In this document: one piece after another, positions 4,823 through 52,036 of the stretch
How positions within the stretch are numbered: position 1 is the first letter of the stretch
Layout of the letters: every line of letters begins with the position of its first letter
Source of the DNA: an uncultured virus (IMG/VR IMGVR_UViG_2568526354_000007)
Taxonomy: Duplodnaviria > Heunggongvirae > Uroviricota > Caudoviricetes
Direction: 5' to 3' (one strand)
IMG/VR virus record: IMGVR_UViG_2568526354_000007
DNA: 64,000 bases
Made by a program: the position numbers and the translations under genes
The notes under the pieces: generated by a model
Databases searched by the model: none
The model's input: the letters and a program-made list of their open reading frames with translations, nothing else
What the model was told of the DNA's origin: nothing

Positions 4823-5245
4823 TCAAAATTGAGCAGAAACTAATTCACGCCCTATATTTTTAATAGTCTCTAATATAAGGTTTACGCGCTCCTGTGAAGG
4901 TTTCTTTGTTCCGCTTATATATTGGGCAAATAAACTTTGTGACATTCCCAGCCGTCGAGCAATAGCTGATGCATTAAGTTCCGGATGTGCTATGAATAAA
5001 TCATATAACACATTATTTTGCTTTTCAGAAAAAAAAACTTCAAAGCTCAAGTTTTCATCAAGTTCCGGCCAATATATCCCATAAGGAGTTACTTTATAAT
5101 TACTCCTTTGTTCCGGAGTAGCCCGGTTTAACCTCTGAACATCGGCAAATTGTTCACTTGCCTCCCTACCGTCGGAAGTACGTATACAGATAGCCGTATC
5201 AGTAAGCCACACTTTATCCACTTGTTTAATAATATCCTCATTCAT
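4823..5245 (-). CDS. DUF2442-like plus XRE HTH protein (putative antitoxin/regulator)
   Basis: N-terminal RLNRATPEQRSNY...GIYWPELDENLS; C-terminal HTH (ASAIARRLGMSQSLFAQYISGTKKPS). Confidence 0.75.
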   Translation of the reverse strand: MNEDIIKQVDKVWLTDTAICIRTSDGREASEQFADVQRLNRATPEQRSNYKVTPYGIYWPELDENLSFEVFFSEKQNNVLYDLFIAHPELNASAIARRLGMSQSLFAQYISGTKKPSQERVNLILETIKNIGRELVSAQF

Positions 5246-5257
5246 AACAGCTAAGAT

Positions 5258-5491
5258 TTATGCAGCTATACCTATTTCATATAAAAACTCCGGTGCAAGG
5301 TCCGCACCATTGGCCCATTCAATAGTGGCACGGGTTAAACCATATTGAACAAATTTTTCCTTATCCAACAACTCCCCGAAAACCTCACCAGTAAGATAAG
5401 GTTCCAGATTCACGAGCTTTTTATTCCCGTCATTAAAAGTAACAAGAAGCTCGTAATTCCTGATATAATCAACATCTATCACTCGTAACAT
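5258..5491 (-). CDS. DUF2442-like protein
   Basis: YELLVTFNDG...IEWANGADLAPEFLY signature. Confidence 0.75.
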   Translation of the reverse strand: MLRVIDVDYIRNYELLVTFNDGNKKLVNLEPYLTGEVFGELLDKEKFVQYGLTRATIEWANGADLAPEFLYEIGIAA

Positions 5492-5498
5492 AAGCTGT

Positions 5499-5756
5499 TT
5501 ATTTTAATGGTTCTATTTTATCTATTTTTTCTCCTTTTTGAGCCTTCTCCCAGAGAGAAAGTATTTCTGCCTCGTGCAAATTAATCCATTCATTAACCTT
5601 TGCGATAACTTTAGCTGGAGCCTGACCGTCTACAATCCGGTCCAATACGCTAATAGAACATTCATAATCACCATAAGTAAAATGGAGATGCGGTGGATTA
5701 TGATCTTTCCAATAGAGGAAGATAATAATACCGAAGAATCTACAAATTTCAGGCAT
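5499..5756 (-). CDS. DUF4160-like protein (putative toxin)
   Basis: MPEICRFFGIII...DHNPPHLH...WINLHEAEILSLW. Start moved to ATG 5756, downstream of a TATCTTTG box at 5783-5790. Confidence 0.75.
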   Translation of the reverse strand: MPEICRFFGIIIFLYWKDHNPPHLHFTYGDYECSISVLDRIVDGQAPAKVIAKVNEWINLHEAEILSLWEKAQKGEKIDKIEPLK

Positions 5757-5782
5757 AAACTTTGTCTTATTGGTTACTGATA

Positions 5783-5810
5783 CAAAGATAGGTAATAAAA
5801 TCATTACCTC
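5783..5810 (-). promoter_or_regulatory. Promoter -7 box with overlapping palindromic operator of the DUF4160/DUF2442 module
   Basis: TATCTTTG (minus strand) next to the inverted repeat AGGTAAT-N6-ATTACCT. Confidence 0.55.
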
Positions 5811-5837
5811 CAAATATTTAGGTATTAATTTTATTAT

Positions 5838-12323: not shown

Positions 12324-12421
12324 TAAAAAAGTGCCGGGAACCACCCCGGCACAAACAACCCCTAACCTGGAACTTAAACTTAACGGATACCTTTTTCAAC
12401 AGGTATGCTAAATTATTCATA

Positions 12422-12655
12422 TTAAGGATTAGACAACTTTTCGATGTCTTTTTTCATCATGCGTAATAATTGAATCCTCCTTAACACTTCATTTGTTGGT
12501 GTACTTTCATCTCCTTTCTCTATTAGAAAATCGATTAGGTCCTCAATAACTTCGATATAGCAAGCGGACACCGGTTCCGTCTTAACTTGCCACAGTTTCA
12601 AAATCTCGGCGCTTTCATCTGTGATATGTGCGCCGTTTACTTCTATATCTTTCAT
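12422..12655 (-). CDS. Hypothetical phage protein
   Basis: 77-aa ORF in a tightly packed operon. Confidence 0.6.
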   Translation of the reverse strand: MKDIEVNGAHITDESAEILKLWQVKTEPVSACYIEVIEDLIDFLIEKGDESTPTNEVLRRIQLLRMMKKDIEKLSNP

Positions 12656-12668
12656 ACTAATTCTTTCT

Positions 12669-13043
12669 TTAAACGTTTTTAATCGGTGTAGTCTCTAAGG
12701 TAGTAAAATCAATAATTCCGGCCTGCCGGTATATTCCGAGGGCGACTTTTCTGAATCGTTCGTAATTACGTCTATCAATGGGCGACAACTGCCACCTCTT
12801 CATGTCTTTCATCAAATCCGGTATATTATTAGCACTATTATACAAACAGTTGTTTTTACCGTACTCGTGATGAAGTGATACGGACTGAAAATCACCGGAG
12901 AAAACAACTAACCGCAAACGTTCAAGTTCGAGGAAAGCAAATTCTTCGTTTACCTTCTCCACCTTATAGGCTCTTAATTCAATGGAAGGTGTACCGTATT
13001 CACGTCTAACGAAAAATAGAATATCAGGATTATTTGTATTCAT
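12669..13043 (-). CDS. Hypothetical phage protein
   Basis: 124 aa; start overlaps the upstream stop (ATGA). Confidence 0.65.
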   Translation of the reverse strand: MNTNNPDILFFVRREYGTPSIELRAYKVEKVNEEFAFLELERLRLVVFSGDFQSVSLHHEYGKNNCLYNSANNIPDLMKDMKRWQLSPIDRRNYERFRKVALGIYRQAGIIDFTTLETTPIKNV

Positions 13044-13396
13044 TTGGCACCTCCTTTTAAGTCTTCTAATTTAACATGTGAAATACTTGTTATATTTTCC
13101 AGTACCCCGTCGCATATACTTTTAACCCTTAATCCGCGGGAGCCGTCTTTCTTGGGTAAATTCAGGTGATAATACGGGCAATTCCTCCAAAATGTAATCT
13201 GAGAAATCCAGCCACGAACTTTAAAAGTAGCATTGCTTATTTTATAATCAATCTGTACCAGATCATCCGGTTTAAATCGACTTTCTTGTAAAAACATCCC
13301 TTGAATTTCTTCCTGCTCTTTCTTTATTTCCTCAATCCTTTTTTCATTGTTTTGTAATTGAGTAAGTAAGACCTGTTGATATTCAGTATATATCAT
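13040..13396 (-). CDS. Hypothetical phage protein
   Basis: 118 aa; GGAGG plus ATGA coupling. Confidence 0.65.
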   Translation of the reverse strand: MIYTEYQQVLLTQLQNNEKRIEEIKKEQEEIQGMFLQESRFKPDDLVQIDYKISNATFKVRGWISQITFWRNCPYYHLNLPKKDGSRGLRVKSICDGVLENITSISHVKLEDLKGGAK

Positions 13397-13743
13397 TTAG
13401 CACCTCCTTTCTTTTCTATCTGGGGACGCTCTGAAAACCTATATATTCCTTTAACCCGGTAAATGGAAAAATAGGCTACAGGCTTATCACAGCCGTTATT
13501 ATGTGTTTTAGTGTCCTGGTCTATGTGAATAAACCCGCTACCGGAAGATATTTTCAGCGGCATTGTTTTAGGGTATTTCTCGTTCAGCTCCTTTACCTTT
13601 GCTTCCAGTTCAGTTTTAAAAGCATCAAAGGAAATTTCATCAGGGCAAAGCGTATTACCAAACTGGTTTGCAAACTCTGTCATTTCAGCACATTTTCGAT
13701 TCTGTGGCTTATATTCGGTAAGCTTAATAAAATAAGATATCAT
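13393..13743 (-). CDS. Hypothetical phage protein
   Basis: Start MISYFIK is coupled to the upstream stop. Confidence 0.65.
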   Translation of the reverse strand: MISYFIKLTEYKPQNRKCAEMTEFANQFGNTLCPDEISFDAFKTELEAKVKELNEKYPKTMPLKISSGSGFIHIDQDTKTHNNGCDKPVAYFSIYRVKGIYRFSERPQIEKKGGAK

Positions 13744-13991
13744 TTTCGGCCTCCTTTCTGTAATTTCTTTGCCCGGTACACACAAATAGCCGCACCGATA
13801 ACAGCCGGTGGGAAGATAAAAGTAAGACAGAACCAGGCGATAGCAGATAAATAATAAGCATCAGAAGCCGAGTTTATGGAACACTCTTTTTCCAGCTCCT
13901 GAAAATAACGATGTTGGATTGTGTTTACGTCCGTGCTACCAGTACGGAACGAGGGCACGTAGCTTGTGCCGGATTGAAATTCTTTTTCCAT
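13740..13991 (-). CDS. Small TM protein, first gene behind the antisense switch (A)
   Basis: SDAYYLSAIAWFCLTFIFPP; homologue at 50631-50885 (SDAYYVSAIACLCATFIFPP). Confidence 0.7.
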   Translation of the reverse strand: MEKEFQSGTSYVPSFRTGSTDVNTIQHRYFQELEKECSINSASDAYYLSAIAWFCLTFIFPPAVIGAAICVYRAKKLQKGGRK

Positions 13992-14023
13992 AACGGTGTT
14001 AATTTTGACTATTTTACATGGGA

Positions 14024-14114
14024 AAGGCGGTTACCATTTCCCCTAATTCGTCAAAATTAACACCGCAAACCGTCCGAAGATCGGGTTATAAGTTTAGGGA
14101 AAGGCAACCGCCTT
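14024..14114 (-). ncRNA. Putative c4/CI-like antisense RNA (A)
   Basis: Closing stem 14024-14046/14094-14114 encloses 14050-14065, which is complementary to 13994-14009 (16/16) and 14196-14211 (15/16). Confidence 0.65.
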
Positions 14115-14354
14115 ATATAAACAACACTAAACGGGGTAGAAAAGAACCCCTTTATTTTTTCGAGCCAATAACCGAGACTCACCGGACCGCATCAGCGGTG
14201 TTAACTTTGACAGGGGCAAATGTCGGCATTAAATTCTGAACAAAAAAAAAAAAAACGTTAATTAAAGTTTATGTAAAAAGAAAGTTTGTAGACAAGGCGA
14301 TTCGTTACTTCGTAACAAAAACGCCCGCCAGAATTGGCGAGCGTTAATCTATTC

Positions 14355-14873
14355 TTATGGTTCATATCTCTTTTGAGCTTTATTCTCTTTATCACTTTCC
14401 TTTTTTATATTTCGCATAAATAAAGGAATTTTCTTTTCTACCTTTTCATTATAATTCTCTTTGTCTTCCATGACCGCTTTCTCCATGTCTTCAAAATCTT
14501 TTTGTGTTATAATCCCTTCTCGTATTTCATCATCAGAAACTATATCTTTACTTAATAACCAATGATATATATTTTGATTCGTATTTTCATTTGTAACAAC
14601 GTATGCCTGCTCAAATTTCCACCTAAATTTTGCTAAATAATTCATGGCGTCTACCATAGAATTAAATTCAATTTCTTTCCCGGATTCATCTACCATAAAC
14701 GTTTTGTATTTCCCGAAATAAGATGTTTTTTGCCCGAAGTCTATTTGTATTTTGACTTTAGAACTTAAAACTTTACCTGTACCAATAATTTCACAAAACG
14801 TTTTTCGCGGTTCTTGTGCTGTAGCTGCTATTACTAAAATAGCCAACACGGTAGTTAATAATAATTTCTTCAT
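14355..14873 (-). CDS. Secreted hypothetical protein (moron)
   Basis: Sec signal MKKLLLTTVLAILVIAATA; AT-rich; own TATTTTTG box (~14957) and terminator (~14320-14345). Confidence 0.7.
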   Translation of the reverse strand: MKKLLLTTVLAILVIAATAQEPRKTFCEIIGTGKVLSSKVKIQIDFGQKTSYFGKYKTFMVDESGKEIEFNSMVDAMNYLAKFRWKFEQAYVVTNENTNQNIYHWLLSKDIVSDDEIREGIITQKDFEDMEKAVMEDKENYNEKVEKKIPLFMRNIKKESDKENKAQKRYEP

Positions 14874-15046
14874 ATCAGTAACTTAAAATTAGTGTACACT
14901 TTCGTCTGTACCACCCGTAAGTTCTGACGGTTATATTTAGTGTGATTTTGACGGTTGCAAAAATACTTAAAAATATATATTTATACAAAAGCCCTATCAA
15001 AAAAAATAATGTGATAAGCCTTAGTTGTTATTATGTAAATTAAAGA

Positions 15047-15493
15047 TTAAACATCTGATAATAACCATGCTAATATCCTTTTTATAGGGGCTGCTGATAG
15101 CACTCCTACTATAAACGCCATAATACTACATATTACGCTCGTAGCGTTTAGATAATTTGATAGTATCGTTGATTCCTTTACTCTCGAATCCTGTTTTTTA
15201 TCCCTTATTTTACCAAATTGCCGTTTTCTCAAAGCACGAAGATATTCATGATAATTTCCATACTTCTTGATTACCTTATAGCCTTTGGAAGTTAACGAAA
15301 GCTTCCCGGATTGTTCTCTTACCAGCCCTTCTAATAATAGCTGGTTGAGTGCTATTTTTCCAAATTCAACCGGATAACCTGTTGCTAGAGCTTTTACAAA
15401 GCCACTATTCAAGGAAAAAGGTTCAAGACAACAATATAAACAGGTCATAATAGAACTTTTTATATTATCTATCGGGGTTTCTTTTCGCTCCAT
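15047..15493 (-). CDS. Membrane-anchored hypothetical protein (moron)
   Basis: Winged-helix-like N-terminal part (GLV...LSLTSKG) and a C-terminal TM; AT-rich. Confidence 0.6.
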   Translation of the reverse strand: MERKETPIDNIKSSIMTCLYCCLEPFSLNSGFVKALATGYPVEFGKIALNQLLLEGLVREQSGKLSLTSKGYKVIKKYGNYHEYLRALRKRQFGKIRDKKQDSRVKESTILSNYLNATSVICSIMAFIVGVLSAAPIKRILAWLLSDV

Positions 15494-30802: not shown

Positions 30803-31030
30803 TTAGTCCACATGGAAGATTTTCATGCCCGTTACTTCCTCGATCTTATCCTTGGCAAGTTCGGGAATACGACAACGACTACCCCGCCAATTACGAATGG
30901 TATGTAATGGCACTTTACATGCTTCTGCCAACTTAAGGGACATTTCAGAAGATTCTTTTACCGGCAAATTCAAAAGGTACATTCTTAGTTTCTCGCCGTC
31001 ATCATTCCTTTTTAATTTTTTTTTCGTCAT
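30803..31030 (-). CDS. Cro-like HTH regulator
   Basis: KLAEACKVPLHTIRNWRGSRCRIP; divergent from the repressor gene. Confidence 0.7.
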   Translation of the reverse strand: MTKKKLKRNDDGEKLRMYLLNLPVKESSEMSLKLAEACKVPLHTIRNWRGSRCRIPELAKDKIEEVTGMKIFHVD

Positions 31031-31142
31031 ACCTTTGTGATAAATATACTCATTATTGTTAACTTTACATAGCAAAGGTATAATTATTTTTACCATAGGT
31101 GAATAAAATTCACGTTAATAAAAGTTATAACAAAAGTGTAAT

Positions 31143-31448
31143 ATGGCTAATTTCTTGTTAATAAGAGAGTTATGTGAATTAAAGAAAATCACTATACGAG
31201 AACTTGCTTCACGTATAGGAAAAGAAGATAGTAGCATACAGGCTATTGTTAGAAATGGATCAACGAATACAAAAACCATTGAAGCAATAGCAAAGGTTTT
31301 AGAGGTTCCTGTAGGTGTATTCTTTGATGATATTCCCATAAATGGAATAAAATCAAATGAACTTGATAAGGATGCAAAAATAGCTGATTTAGAAAGGATA
31401 ATTGAAGAGAAGGAACGTCTAATACAAGTCTTATTAAGTAAGAAATAA
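31143..31448 (+). CDS. CI-like XRE repressor
   Basis: ITIRELASRIGKEDSSIQ...TIEAIAKVLEVPVGVFF HTH plus a C-terminal coiled coil; no S24 domain seen. Confidence 0.8.
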   Translation: MANFLLIRELCELKKITIRELASRIGKEDSSIQAIVRNGSTNTKTIEAIAKVLEVPVGVFFDDIPINGIKSNELDKDAKIADLERIIEEKERLIQVLLSKK

Positions 31449-31464
31449 CCTGTAATAGATAAGA

Positions 31465-31720
31465 AATGTAGGCATATTGTAGGCTATATAATTATACAAA
31501 TAATTAATAATCAGGCGATTAAAGAACGTTACTTGAATCACAACGTAAAGGCAAGTAGTCTATAAAAAGACTGCTTGCCTTTCGTCATTTTACTGGTTAT
31601 CAAACACTTAGTACCACATCATTTCAGGTCAAAATCGTGCAAATTTCTTCAAAAAGGTAGAAAACAAATAGAAAACATACCCTAATTAAGGTATGGTAGA
31701 AAGAATTTAGAAAACAAAAA
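31465..31720. other. Putative att junction between prophages A and B
   Basis: ACGTT-N11-AACGT core (31526-31546) flanked by IHF-like AATCAGGCGATTA and TATCAAACACTTA sites and by different direct repeats on each side (TGTAGGC x2; TAGAAA x4). Confidence 0.5.
31547..31582. terminator. Hairpin terminator
   Basis: AAAGGCAAGTAGTC-N8-GACTGCTTGCCTTT. Confidence 0.7.
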
Positions 31721-32883
31721 TGATCATAAGAATAGTCCAAAATATACAGAGAATCAATAAAGAGGGTAATGCTCCTCTCTATATATCCTTTTATTTAGGA
31801 AAGGAAAAAGTTGTTATACCTTGTAAGTTATCTGTGCCTACAACTAAATTTGATTCTAAAACAGGAATGCTCAGAGGTACTAATAAGGAAGCAAAAGATA
31901 TTAATCTCATCATAGAACGGTTGAAAGCAAAAGTTAATGATATTCTCGTTAAGTATAGGCTCAAAAATCTCACACTGAATAAAGAAGCTTTTATAAGGGA
32001 ATATAACAACCCTTCAGATTTTAAATCCTTTCATGACTTTGTAGCATCTTATATGAAGACTTACAGTAGGAGATTAGAAATAGGAACATTTCGACATCAC
32101 AAAAGTTGTATGAGAAAGTTTAAAGAGTATTGTGAAGGCTTACAGTTTCATGAACTAACAGAAGATTTCCTCAGAGACTATCTAATTTATATGAAAAAAA
32201 CTCTATGCAACGCAGATTCAACGGCCCAACGTAATTTATCAACCATAAAAATATATGTATCTGCGGCTATAAAAAAGGGGTATATGGAAAATGATCCTTT
32301 TAAGGATTTTGGTGTAAAGAGAATAAAAGGTAATATTGACTATCTCACCGAAGAGGAATTGATAAAGTTCATTAGTTTATACTATGATAGAAGATTACCT
32401 GAACGTTTAGAACGAACATTAGGTTTCTTTTTATTTATGTGTTTCACCAGTTTGCATATTTCTGATGCTCGACACGTCTGTCTTGAACAAATTAATAATG
32501 GAATACTTACTTATTATCGGATTAAAAATAGAAATTGCAAACCGGAAGCAATAAAAATACCACTTTCAATTCCGGCATTCAAGATCATAGAGGAACTCCA
32601 AGGAAAAAGAAAAGAAGGACACCTCTTTACTTCATTGCAATGTGATCAGGTTGTTAATAGGCAAATTAAAGAGATCGCATCCATATTAGAGATAAAGAAA
32701 AAAGTGTCAGCCAAAACAGGTAGGCATACTTTCGCTACCATATTTCTAAAAAAAACAAAGGATGTAGCGACATTGCAAAAGTTATTAGGACATAGTAATT
32801 TGAAAGAAACAATGATCTATGCGCATGTACTTGATGAAAGCAAACAGGAAGGAATGCAATGCTTCAACTGCTTCGCTATTTAA
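31720..32883 (+). CDS. int: Tyrosine integrase
   Basis: Arm-binding N-terminus, SAM-like domain, GRHTFAT, LLGHS...TMIYAH. Box I reads TSLHISD rather than TGLRxSD. Confidence 0.92.
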   Translation: MIIRIVQNIQRINKEGNAPLYISFYLGKEKVVIPCKLSVPTTKFDSKTGMLRGTNKEAKDINLIIERLKAKVNDILVKYRLKNLTLNKEAFIREYNNPSDFKSFHDFVASYMKTYSRRLEIGTFRHHKSCMRKFKEYCEGLQFHELTEDFLRDYLIYMKKTLCNADSTAQRNLSTIKIYVSAAIKKGYMENDPFKDFGVKRIKGNIDYLTEEELIKFISLYYDRRLPERLERTLGFFLFMCFTSLHISDARHVCLEQINNGILTYYRIKNRNCKPEAIKIPLSIPAFKIIEELQGKRKEGHLFTSLQCDQVVNRQIKEIASILEIKKKVSAKTGRHTFATIFLKKTKDVATLQKLLGHSNLKETMIYAHVLDESKQEGMQCFNCFAI

Positions 32884-49641: not shown

Positions 49642-50127
49642 TTAATCCTCCCAGTATGTTTGGTCAATGAAATAGGTTTCAGGTTGAGCCAAAGAGAATG
49701 TCAGTACTACACCATAGAAATTATCACCAATCGGACCAATACCATTAAATTGAATGGTATCGTCAATGAATTCTGAAATGTCGGGGTCTTGCAGGATACA
49801 GTTCCGAATTTGTTTTGCGACAGCTTTGCATTCTTTTGCTGCCTGGTTGATTGTTTCCGGACGATCAGAAACAGTGTTCTGTGCCACAATGAAAGAGAAC
49901 ATGTCATTGTTATTAAGCGCATCGGATTCGTTTCGTTTTGATTCAGATTCACAACCATCAACTGCAATCAGGATCATGCCGGATACGGATGATAGTTTAT
50001 CATTAAAATTATATAAGTCCTCAAGTCCGAAAGCGGTGAAGAATCTGGGCTTTTCGGGTGTGTGGGCAATAGGCTTTAAGCGAATGGCAAGTGTTTTGCC
50101 ATATTCAAAGTGGTTGTATATCTCCAT
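49642..50127 (-). CDS. Putative tail terminator (B)
   Basis: 161 aa, ends FYGVVLTFS; counterpart of 6433-6876. Confidence 0.55.
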   Translation of the reverse strand: MEIYNHFEYGKTLAIRLKPIAHTPEKPRFFTAFGLEDLYNFNDKLSSVSGMILIAVDGCESESKRNESDALNNNDMFSFIVAQNTVSDRPETINQAAKECKAVAKQIRNCILQDPDISEFIDDTIQFNGIGPIGDNFYGVVLTFSLAQPETYFIDQTYWED

Positions 50128-50672
50128 AAAAGTCAGGGGTTAGGTTATGGAGACAAAAATAGCCCGCGGAAAGCGGGCTATAAAGGACAGGTCAGGAGAA
50201 CCAGAGCGTTAAGAGGATGATACCGGCGATAATGGATATACTTTTACCAGTTGCATTCCTACTTCTTCTTACAATAGCGGTCTCGACAGTGACAAAACCT
50301 ATAATAATACAAAAGTCTATCATAGTTCTTCTCTTATTCAGGTAATAAAATCCGAATTAACTCACGAAGCTGCATTGCTGCACGTTCTTTTTCTATCGGT
50401 GATGTGCCTTCGGATAATAGGATATCAACGAGGGTTAATGCTTTCTTCTTATTCATGGCATTCTCCTTTCTTTTCTTTCTCAATTTGGTTAATAAGATTA
50501 CGTATAGCGATTAATCTGTCATAGGAGATTTCGCAGAGCTGCTCACCATCGGCAAAAACGTTATAATAGATATTTGGTGTATTCTTTCCTTCATGAAGAA
50601 CAGTGCACTTTTCGATCCAGGCTTCTTCTTTTATTCGTCCCATTTCGTACCTCCTTTCTTAGTTTTGATAAC
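50113..50672. repeat. ~560-bp direct repeat, copy 1 (contains promoter copy 6 at 50154-50189 and three small ORFs)
   Basis: Near-identical, with scattered substitutions, to 51231-51790. Confidence 0.92.
50449..50643 (-). CDS. Small hypothetical protein
   Basis: 64 aa, GGAGG-coupled; degenerate second copy at ~51568-51760. Confidence 0.55.
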   Translation of the reverse strand: MGRIKEEAWIEKCTVLHEGKNTPNIYYNVFADGEQLCEISYDRLIAIRNLINQIEKEKKGECHE

Positions 50673-50885: not shown

Positions 50886-50941
50886 ACTTACTGATTGTTT
50901 CGCATTTTAGTTGAGAACCGCTCAACCATCGGGACGCAGAA

Positions 50942-51018
50942 ACGGCTGCCATCTCCCGTGTCGCGAAACAATCAGTAAGATTACTCCAAGAGCAAAATTA
51001 CAAGGGAAAGGCAGCCGT
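50942..51018 (-). ncRNA. Putative c4/CI-like antisense RNA (B)
   Basis: Stem 50942-50957/51004-51018 encloses 50963-50979 (complementary to 50887-50903 and 51121-51134) and 50986-50993 (complementary to 51102-51109). Confidence 0.65.
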
Positions 51019-51230
51019 ATTGGTTGCTTTTAATAAAAGCTTCTACATATATCTAATGGACATAAAAAAAGCCCATCTTTATTCGTTGAGCGTCTTGCAT
51101 CGCTCTTGGTGATAAACATCACTGATTATTTCGCACTGCAAATATGGATATAATATTTGAGAGTGCAAAGAGAAAATTGTATTTTTATCATAAAATGTAG
51201 CAACATGAATAATATGGATACAGTCGGTGA

Positions 51231-51790
51231 GTTGTATATCTCCATGAAAGTCAGGGGTTAGGTTATGGAGACAAAAATAGCCCGCGGAAAGCGGGCTATA
51301 AAGGACAGGTCAGGAGAACCAAAGCGTTAAGAGGATGATAGCGGAGATAATGGATATACTTTTACCAGTTGCATTCCTACTTCTTCTTACAATAGTGGTC
51401 TCGACAGTGACAAAACCTATAATAATACAAAAGTCTATCATAGTTCTTCTCTTATTCGGGTAATAAAATCCGAATTAACTCACGAAGCTGCATTGCTGCA
51501 CGTTCTTTTTCTATCGGTGATGTGCCTTCGGATAATAGGACATCGACGAGGGCTAATGCTTCCTCCTTATTCATGGCATTCTCCTTTCTTTTCTTTCTCA
51601 ATTTGGTTAATAAGATTACGTATAGCGATTAATCTGTCATAGGAGATTTTGCAGAGCTGCTTAACATCGGCAAAAACGTTATAATAGATATTGGGTGTGG
51701 CCTTTCCTTCATGAAGTACAGTACACTTTTCGACCCAAGCTTCTTCTTTTATTCATTCCATTTCCTACCTCCTTTCTTAGCTTTGATAAC
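51231..51790. repeat. ~560-bp direct repeat, copy 2 (contains promoter copy 7 at 51272-51307)
   Basis: Matches 50113-50672; keeps only the first 5 codons (MEIYN) of the tail gene. Confidence 0.92.
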
Positions 51791-52036
51791 GAATAATCTA
51801 CCTATATTGAATGGATCATCACGGCTTTTTTGTAATTTTGCAGTTGGATTGAGATAACTCGTTCCTAGACATATTGCTCGATAGCTTCACAATCACCACC
51901 ACAAATAAAGAGCAACAACTAATATTGGGACTTCCCCGAATATGGGCGCAGACTTCCCATATTTAGTTGTGGTTTGTGGTAAACCGTGAAGCGTATGGCA
52001 AATGTCTGCGCTTTTTATTATAAAAAAATAATAGAT

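Follow-up and report, generated by a model that had tools for sequence, protein, structure and literature searches.

A candidate antisense RNA switch with exchangeable addresses, similar in layout to c4 and CI, upstream of small-gene cassettes in Bacteroidales prophages

In the stretch of DNA analysed here (64,000 nucleotides of IMG/VR record IMGVR_UViG_2568526354_000007, hereafter the window), the leader of a five-gene cassette of prophage A contains a segment, a', that is complementary to one site upstream (a1) and one site downstream (a2) of it. The question raised by this locus is whether the leader encodes an antisense RNA switch of the c4/CI type, as was proposed by a sequence-only reading, or whether the repeats serve another purpose. 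To our knowledge, little is known about how Bacteroides prophages tell kin from strangers and how the lysogeny decision is taken. The five elements listed in the sequence-only reading (a promoter box, a1, a stem-closed RNA displaying a', a2 and the ATG of gene 1) were all found on the minus strand exactly where it had placed them, as checked on the letters. The segment a' is complementary to a2 at all 16 positions and to a1 at 15 of 16, the odd one being a G–U pair, and the end of a2 is separated by 2 nt from the ATG of gene 1 at 13991. The block of hairpin, antiterminator and terminator between a1 and the RNA, as well as a second copy of the switch at 50887–51146, were absent from that reading. 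The parts of the prophage A switch are listed below.

14320..14345, minus strand: intrinsic terminator of the upstream 172-aa gene (11 pairs, U tail), predicted to insulate the cassette
14241..14254, minus strand: T13 tract ending in the putative −33 TTTG
14217..14224, minus strand: putative −7 box for sigma-ABfr, deviating from the consensus at its first base; its spacer is 16 nt vs. 19–20 nt in the family
14196..14211, minus strand: a1, the upstream target, predicted to lie at the 5' end of the transcript, with the first 6 nt unpaired (toehold)
14186..14199, minus strand: hairpin H1, containing the 3' half of a1
14172–14185, minus strand: alternative hairpin H2, overlapped by the antiterminator (by eye)
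14162..14180, minus strand: antiterminator hairpin (W:X), predicted from covariation
14140..14166, minus strand: terminator T1 (X:Y and U tract), degenerate in the prophage A copy
14133..14150, minus strand: hairpin H4 (Y:Z) with the U tract in its loop, predicted to form only after read-through
14024..14114, minus strand: stem-closed RNA domain of ~90 nt, predicted from fold and covariation
14094–14114 with 14024–14046, minus strand: closing stem P1 of the ~90-nt RNA
14069–14086, minus strand: inner hairpin P2 of the ~90-nt RNA
14047–14056, minus strand: seed hairpin P3 of the ~90-nt RNA
14050..14065, minus strand: a', the variable antisense address, its last 4 nt lying in the P3 loop and matching the first 4 nt of a1 and a2
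14020..14043, minus strand: alternative hairpin of the P1 3' arm, predicted for the OFF fold, in which a' and a2 of one transcript are paired
13994..14009, minus strand: a2, downstream target over the translation initiation region of gene 1

The switch of prophage A sits between the terminase gene and the holin/portal block, and the cassette is bounded by terminators at 14345–14320 and 12352–12331. A separate divergent HTH pair and the integrase of the prophage are located at 30803–32883, the HTH matches being weak and the integrase match strong. Upstream of the cassette, the region 14355–15493 holds two orphan genes (172 and 148 aa) with a promoter-like start and a terminator of their own, in place of which a different single gene is found in the Bacteroides phage BT-TP2. 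Elsewhere in the window, three small genes at 4823–5813 resemble, by eye, the DUF4160/DUF2442/HTH cluster of BT-TP2 gp36–38.

The three-site observation is exact and is not due to chance. None of 5000 dinucleotide shuffles reproduced the three-site pattern, and a 16-nt exact inverted pair was present in only three of 532 window tiles, one at the prophage A switch and two at the prophage B copy (near 50900). The stem-closed RNA has a predicted fold of −36.9 kcal/mol (z = −4.2), matched by none of 200 shuffles. No further strong target of a' was found within the 64-kb window besides a1 and a2; the next best site reached −16.9 kcal/mol, and the look-alike start of the leader of the upstream gene −8.1 kcal/mol. 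TAnnTTTG-like boxes lying inside a' and antisense to a2 in the prophage A allele were, by eye, not kept in relatives, and a putative further pairing, spotted by eye in the window, showed no covariation in close alleles.

Covariation of a' with a1 and a2 across relatives, the absence of which would have spoken against the sequence-only reading, was examined in three sets of loci and found in each; the counts given below overstate the significance, the kin being non-independent, yet the addresses differ at most variable positions. The close set was derived from a gene 1 search of viral loci, in which the best 80 of 115 yielded 42 distinct upstream sequences, the window included. For 35 of these 42, the three sites were parsed (six divergent rows and one sequence without a parsed a2 were dropped), which left 12 different a' sequences. 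Both a1 and a2 paired best with the cognate a' in 12/12 cases each, and 0 of 100,000 permutations were as good. A covariance model of the RNA, designated R1, was built from 21 sequences of close alleles. The divergent set comprised 23 genome matches (one 42-nt partial match was dropped) and both copies of the window; because a' was defined via a2 in this set, only a1, chosen among promoter-adjacent candidates, constitutes a fair test, and the cognate a' was best for a1 in 25/25 loci (mean −22.4 vs. −7.5 kcal/mol). A separate viral set was collected with a pattern containing none of the three sites (80 loci among 93 matches). By position alone, 54 of these 80 loci were parsed and 26 failed the parser, which resulted in 21 addresses, four of them already seen; the cognate a' was best for a1 in 19/21 and for a2 in 20/21.

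The differences between a1 and a' are mostly G–U wobbles possible only on the leader strand (22:0 and, in the separate viral set, 21:2). Wobbles number 22 for a1 and five for a2, and the pairings a1:a' and a2:a' are of equal strength. Bacteroides genomes often contain invertible DNA, and since a1 and a2 recur in inverted form as a', the repeats could be read as DNA sites, either protein operators or the sites at which an invertible element of Bacteroides is flipped. This reading is exceedingly improbable, as the full RNA was found in the same orientation at 80/80 gene-1-anchored loci (the best 80 of 115), no inversion joints were found in four RNA-run contig sets, the differences are strand-polarised wobbles, and the sequence of the sites turns over faster than the neighbouring genes. 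Covariation, wobble polarity and constant orientation together show RNA–RNA pairing on the leader strand and dismiss the inversion and operator readings. Sequence comparison thus shows that a', as leader-strand RNA, pairs with both a1 and a2.

The same comparison indicates that the P1–P2–P3 RNA domain and the terminator/antiterminator are conserved as predicted structures. In an alignment of 55 sequences fitted to the model, 95.5% of the cells of the P1 stem were paired and two-sided changes occurred in 8 of 17 pairs, a result reached by 0 of 500 shuffles; an unfitted alignment returned the same P1 stem and the small hairpin P3. The latter is complete (4/4 pairs) in 38 of 42 alleles, and its four loop bases are the ones matching the 5'-most four of a1 and a2. 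For the antiterminator, 98% of cells were paired and two-sided changes were seen in 2 of 5 pairs (22 sequences), and its W arm was found in 32/39. The antiterminator shares one arm with terminator T1, which has 4/4 stem pairs followed by 6–8 U in 34 of 40 leaders; only 3/5 pairs are left in the prophage A allele. Hairpin H4 (14133–14150) re-uses the 3' arm of T1 and loops out the U tract; it is the best conserved motif of the family and has a terminator score on the plus strand as well. A 3' CCA following the stem was not conserved among relatives.

The first base of a1 lies 4–5 nt after the TTTG box. In 42/42 alleles the six 5'-terminal bases of a1 are unpaired, and in 40/42 its 3' half is part of H1. 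It should be mentioned that the TTTG box served to locate a1, and the 19–20-nt spacing to the upstream TTG did not. This spacing between the −7 box and the −33 TTG was found in 41 of 42 family members, the exception being the prophage A copy of the window with 16 nt, and it fits the −7/−33 promoter with consensus TAnnTTTG described in PMC7366714. The −7 box that the sequence-only reading had marked at 14217–14224 is correctly placed, and departs from the consensus at its first base and in its 16-nt spacer; the prophage A copy is best regarded as a putative promoter. The T tract at 14241–14254 varies in length from 12 to 16 nt among relatives (59 of 63 loci could be parsed: 12 nt once, 13 nt 45 times, 14 nt 12 times and 16 nt once). 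This variation could be assembly noise, or slippage in the tract could serve to tune the promoter. Contigs assembled from RNA runs cover the leader and stop at 14253–14255 (the T tract), 14219 and 14186; being assembled contigs, they are not evidence of RNA ends or of expression.

According to the predictions, the read-through RNA has two exclusive folds, one with P1 closed and a2 free and one with a' paired to a2. In 35 of 42 alleles the latter (cis OFF) fold has the lower energy, and the median ON/OFF difference amounts to −4.0 kcal/mol. A leader cut before a2 folds with a1 paired to a', and the full leader folds with a' paired to a2. The alternative hairpin of the P1 3' arm appears in 42/42 OFF folds and beats a shuffled spacer in only 26/42. 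In silico blocking of a1 did not release the terminator arm: its sequestration was 0.86 with a1 free and 0.83 with a1 blocked, and fell in 11 and rose in 6 of 39 cases.

Downstream of the switch, the presence of a five-gene operon, also claimed in the sequence-only reading, was upheld, as five ORFs closed by a terminator are found.

13740..13991, minus strand: gene 1, 83 aa, with a hydrophobic segment at the C-terminus and no family match; shares 44% identity with its counterpart in prophage B
13393..13743, minus strand: gene 2, 116 aa, a core gene in this family of cassettes; overlaps gene 1 by ATGA and matches no family
13040..13396, minus strand: gene 3, 118 aa, ATGA overlap, no family
12669..13043, minus strand: gene 4, 124 aa, ATGA overlap, no family
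12422..12655, minus strand: gene 5, 77 aa, no family
12331..12352, minus strand: intrinsic terminator closing the operon

Because of the ATGA overlaps and of SD-like motifs that precede genes 2–4 and are lacking before gene 1, genes 1–4 are probably translationally coupled, so that a block at a2 would silence all of them. Among family members, an SD-like motif was found at the end of gene 1 in 37/46 and at its start in 0/46, and 2 of 44 other window genes have one. The strong SD-like motifs ahead of genes 2–4 (13744–13763, 13397–13416 and 13044–13063) are encoded as the KGG end of the preceding protein; the host group is said to lack SD, and these motifs suggest SD use for coupled re-initiation.

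Searches against Pfam, PHROGs and NCBIfam revealed no antirepressor, Icd/Ash or replication family among the five window genes, nor among 118 downstream proteins of relatives (158 minus near-duplicates), small Bacteroidales phage proteins being thinly covered by family libraries. The predicted model of the gene 2 product (pLDDT 81) was uninformative, with a best Z of 4.8 and an uncharacterised viral homolog as the only relative, and a profile search with gene 2 returned 439 unnamed representatives. The first genes of the cassette differ between lineages. At one locus from another family (L205:8031–8831, genome G476), the switch precedes a DnaD-like replication gene and not a small membrane-protein gene.

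A second, divergent copy of the switch is located in prophage B.

50887..51146, minus strand: second copy, prophage B (R1 score of 42 bits, E-value 4e-8)
51139–51146, minus strand: −7 box
51118–51134, minus strand: a1
51064–51091, minus strand: terminator, intact
50938–51022, minus strand: RNA
50963–50978, minus strand: a'
50887–50903, minus strand: a2

Copies A and B are not predicted to cross-pair (−25/−23 kcal/mol for the cognate pairings vs. −2/−6 kcal/mol), and two copies with different addresses (L091 and L104) were also found in one other genome (G366). In the surroundings of the prophage B copy, positions 50113–50412 and 51231–51530 form a 300-nt direct repeat (98% identical, 1118 nt apart); the distal genes and the terminator of the prophage B cassette are thus apparently present twice, once upstream of the RNA leader. 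A rod-like hairpin at 51875–52000 on the minus strand (−46.8 kcal/mol, z −4.65) follows a −7-like box and precedes the duplicated genes in their upstream copy; it overlaps the start of a plus-strand gene and has no Rfam match at gathering.

R1 matched 19 of 101 genomes of the nearest genus and 5 of 151 genomes of the order, the nearest genome included. In a phylum sample, 1 of 151 genomes was matched, again the nearest genome only; R1 being made from close alleles, this result means not found and is no proof of absence. BLAST of the leader against 301 family genomes returned only three short matches in the promoter region, and against plasmids none; the RNA family is therefore visible only by the covariance model. 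Six genome matches were inspected together with their neighbourhood, for which 47 of 75 ORFs were scanned; three lie by tail tape-measure genes, two by other phage families, and one had no match. BT-TP2, a temperate phage of B. thetaiotaomicron that is cultured and inducible (PMC12694917), shows synteny with the prophage, and its leader bears a different address. Judging by the labels of the BT-TP2 record and of the homologs, the host of the prophage would be Bacteroides.

The 63 close loci carry 14 a' alleles. Over the 600 nt downstream, the median similarity is 0.942 between alleles (n = 554) and 0.945 within alleles (n = 41), and 89 pairs of loci with different addresses are at least 97% identical downstream. 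Since the downstream DNA is equally alike between and within alleles, the leader is exchanged or diversified faster than its genes. As far as sequence comparison can tell, the RNA switch family is real, widespread in Bacteroidales prophages and apparently uncatalogued. No literature on such an RNA in Bacteroidales was found, although the family may be among the unnamed candidates of large structured-RNA screens or in supplements; four short motifs of the switch were absent from the 11 of 20 supplement files of PMC10994844 that were covered.

Regarding known systems, the proposal of a c4/CI-like switch stands as to a sequence-specific RNA–RNA switch with upstream and downstream targets and a covarying stem; by model score, the RNA is no member of Rfam C4. 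In the Infernal search that had been suggested as a check, the window RNA matched neither C4 nor c4-a1b1. RF01695 (C4, family cut-off 45 bits), RF03163 and RF01394 gave no window match at gathering, none at E ≤ 10 in 13800–15100 and none at E ≤ 1 in 20 homolog loci, and RF01695 found nothing over the cut-off in five genomes or records holding the RNA. As positive controls, RF01695 scored 68.8 bits in P1 and 74.9 bits in P4, and RF03163 and RF01394 were also found in P1 and P4. Membership in C4, c4-a1b1 or isrK is thus ruled out by model scores while the controls pass. In the reverse search, R1 found neither P1 c4 nor P4 CI; remote common ancestry with c4/CI is neither shown nor excluded.

The likeness lies in the layout. 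As in P1/P7 immI, a promoter, a hairpin-embedded upstream target, a hairpin with a U tract, a stem-closed RNA and a downstream target at a small gene follow each other. The antisense element lies in the leader and is complementary to an upstream target and to a downstream target at the first gene, and its bases are displayed by a stem-closed RNA with two inner hairpins. P1 c4 is of similar size and likewise folds into three stems, among them an inner hairpin of the UUCG type and another small one, and the genes overlap there as well. By analogy, the switch probably works like P1 immI and P4 immunity, the order of parts being the same as in annotated P1 immI and in seqA – CI – seqC of P4. There are differences too. 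The c4 of P1/P7 has two boxes (7 and 8 nt) with two targets each, whereas here one continuous address of 13–21 nt is present. Unlike in P1, a1 is at the predicted first base of the transcript and a2 abuts the ATG of an SD-less gene. The immI order is a1 b1 – c4 – a2 b2 – icd – ant, whereas no antirepressor is found here, and the hosts are Bacteroidales as opposed to Proteobacteria. Both c4 and CI are processed by RNase P. Proteobacteria are the taxa of c4 RNA in PMC2864571, and allele-specific heteroimmunity is attributed to c4 in PMC12197685.

In P4 (seqA – CI RNA – seqC), the RNA lies in the leader it controls, pairs upstream and downstream and is linked to premature termination, as stated in PMC4825925. 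Here, likewise, the RNA is inside the leader with upstream and downstream pairing predicted, and an intrinsic terminator lies between the upstream target and the RNA (34/40 leaders). CI is the primary immunity of P4, whereas here a separate HTH pair and integrase are present. Gifsy-1 IsrK (RF01394) resembles the switch in that one promoter yields both a short 5' RNA ending at a terminator and a read-through mRNA, whose start region can be masked by alternative folding; it differs in that there is no isrK match here, IsrK activates, and its target anrP is an antirepressor. PMC4825925 describes IsrK as acting in trans by switching translation ON. The Bacteroides sRNAs FopS/GibS, which have a single-stranded 5' seed and a terminator, are chromosomal and act on unlinked mRNAs (PMC11697453), are alike only in being multi-copy small RNAs of the same host group. 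They were rejected, the sole match being a 21.7-bit chance match to an upstream terminator.

Based on sequence comparison and analogy, the switch probably exerts c4/CI-type antisense negative control over an insulated, translationally coupled five-gene cassette. One promoter would give rise to a leader beginning at a1. Early read-through transcripts would express the cassette and release the ~90-nt P1-closed RNA by processing. This RNA would act in trans, nucleating via its P3 loop on the unpaired 5' end (a1) of new transcripts. Pairing at a1 would favour termination at T1 and limit the synthesis of the P1-closed RNA itself, and pairing at a2 would block initiation at gene 1 and hence at the coupled genes. 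With T1 positioned between a1 and a', the latter could influence T1 only from another molecule. A lysogen would silence an incoming cassette with the same address and not one with another, and the address switch would add a second, allele-specific layer to the HTH pair that adjoins the integrase. The diversity of addresses is most simply explained by discrimination between phages. Against this mechanism, the more stable cis OFF fold (35/42) means that a2 could be masked without a trans-acting RNA, the prophage A copy has a degenerate T1 and an off-consensus promoter, and the a1-blocking test was negative. Since no antirepressor, Icd/Ash or replication family was found, the immunity reading lacks an identified effector.

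Some of these findings could be accommodated by the opposite polarity, in which the short a1-to-T1 transcript (~75 nt) binds a' in the read-through mRNA, breaks the cis a':a2 pairing and turns translation ON, as IsrK does in Gifsy-1 (PMC4825925). Covariation is blind to direction, and the preference for the cis OFF fold, the free 5' toehold of a1 in 42/42 alleles and the strength of a1:a', equal to that of a2:a', all agree with such a polarity. It leaves unexplained the 17-pair covarying stem that closes a discrete domain with the seed in a loop, and a1 would be the weaker competitor for a' because it has more wobbles than a2. IsrK-type polarity is considered unlikely, and the c4/CI and IsrK modes may coexist. 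It is likewise decidedly unlikely that the switch works purely in cis, with a' choosing a1 or a2 within one transcript, translation set by folding kinetics and no free small RNA. Such a switch would suit the different folds of the truncated and the full leader and the closeness of the ON and OFF states, but it gives no reason for 14 addresses among near-identical phages or for copies in one window that do not cross-react; moreover, a' cannot act on T1 in cis, and full a1:a' pairing excludes the conserved P1.

The remaining alternative keeps the trans-acting RNA, is compatible with negative control of the c4/CI type, and concerns the job of the cassette, which might be not immunity but the gating of toxic or counter-defence genes (addiction resembling type I toxin–antitoxin systems, abortive infection, or a host-takeover burst on entry). 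The small size of gene 1 and its hydrophobic C-terminal segment, the position of the cassette among morphogenesis genes and not beside the repressor, the exchange of first genes between lineages and the lack of an antirepressor point in this direction. On the other side, no toxin family was matched, the DnaD-like first gene at one distant locus fits P4-like control, and the fast turnover of addresses fits phage–phage discrimination. Altogether, this job is possible, if doubtful.

Returning to antisense control by a trans-acting RNA, a broader and tentative proposal, for which the chances appear somewhat below even, is that these loci represent an uncatalogued 'address' system of temperate Bacteroidales phages. 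In it, a scaffold with an exchangeable guide of 16–20 nt would read the first bases of the transcript and an SD-less start codon, and dozens of mutually orthogonal addresses, circulating among gut phages that are otherwise nearly identical, would define RNA-encoded incompatibility or superinfection groups, gating small antirepressor or host-takeover proteins. If this broader proposal is true, the family would also offer a ready-made library of orthogonal riboregulators for Bacteroides. Already without it, the switch provides a code readable from sequence, in which matched and mismatched addresses predict which phages should silence each other's cassette. Control of the c4/CI type, a proteobacterial feature so far, is extended to Bacteroidales with a single guide, a simpler arrangement that suits SD-less genes, and genes 1 and 2 stand out as presumably tightly repressed proteins without an assigned function.
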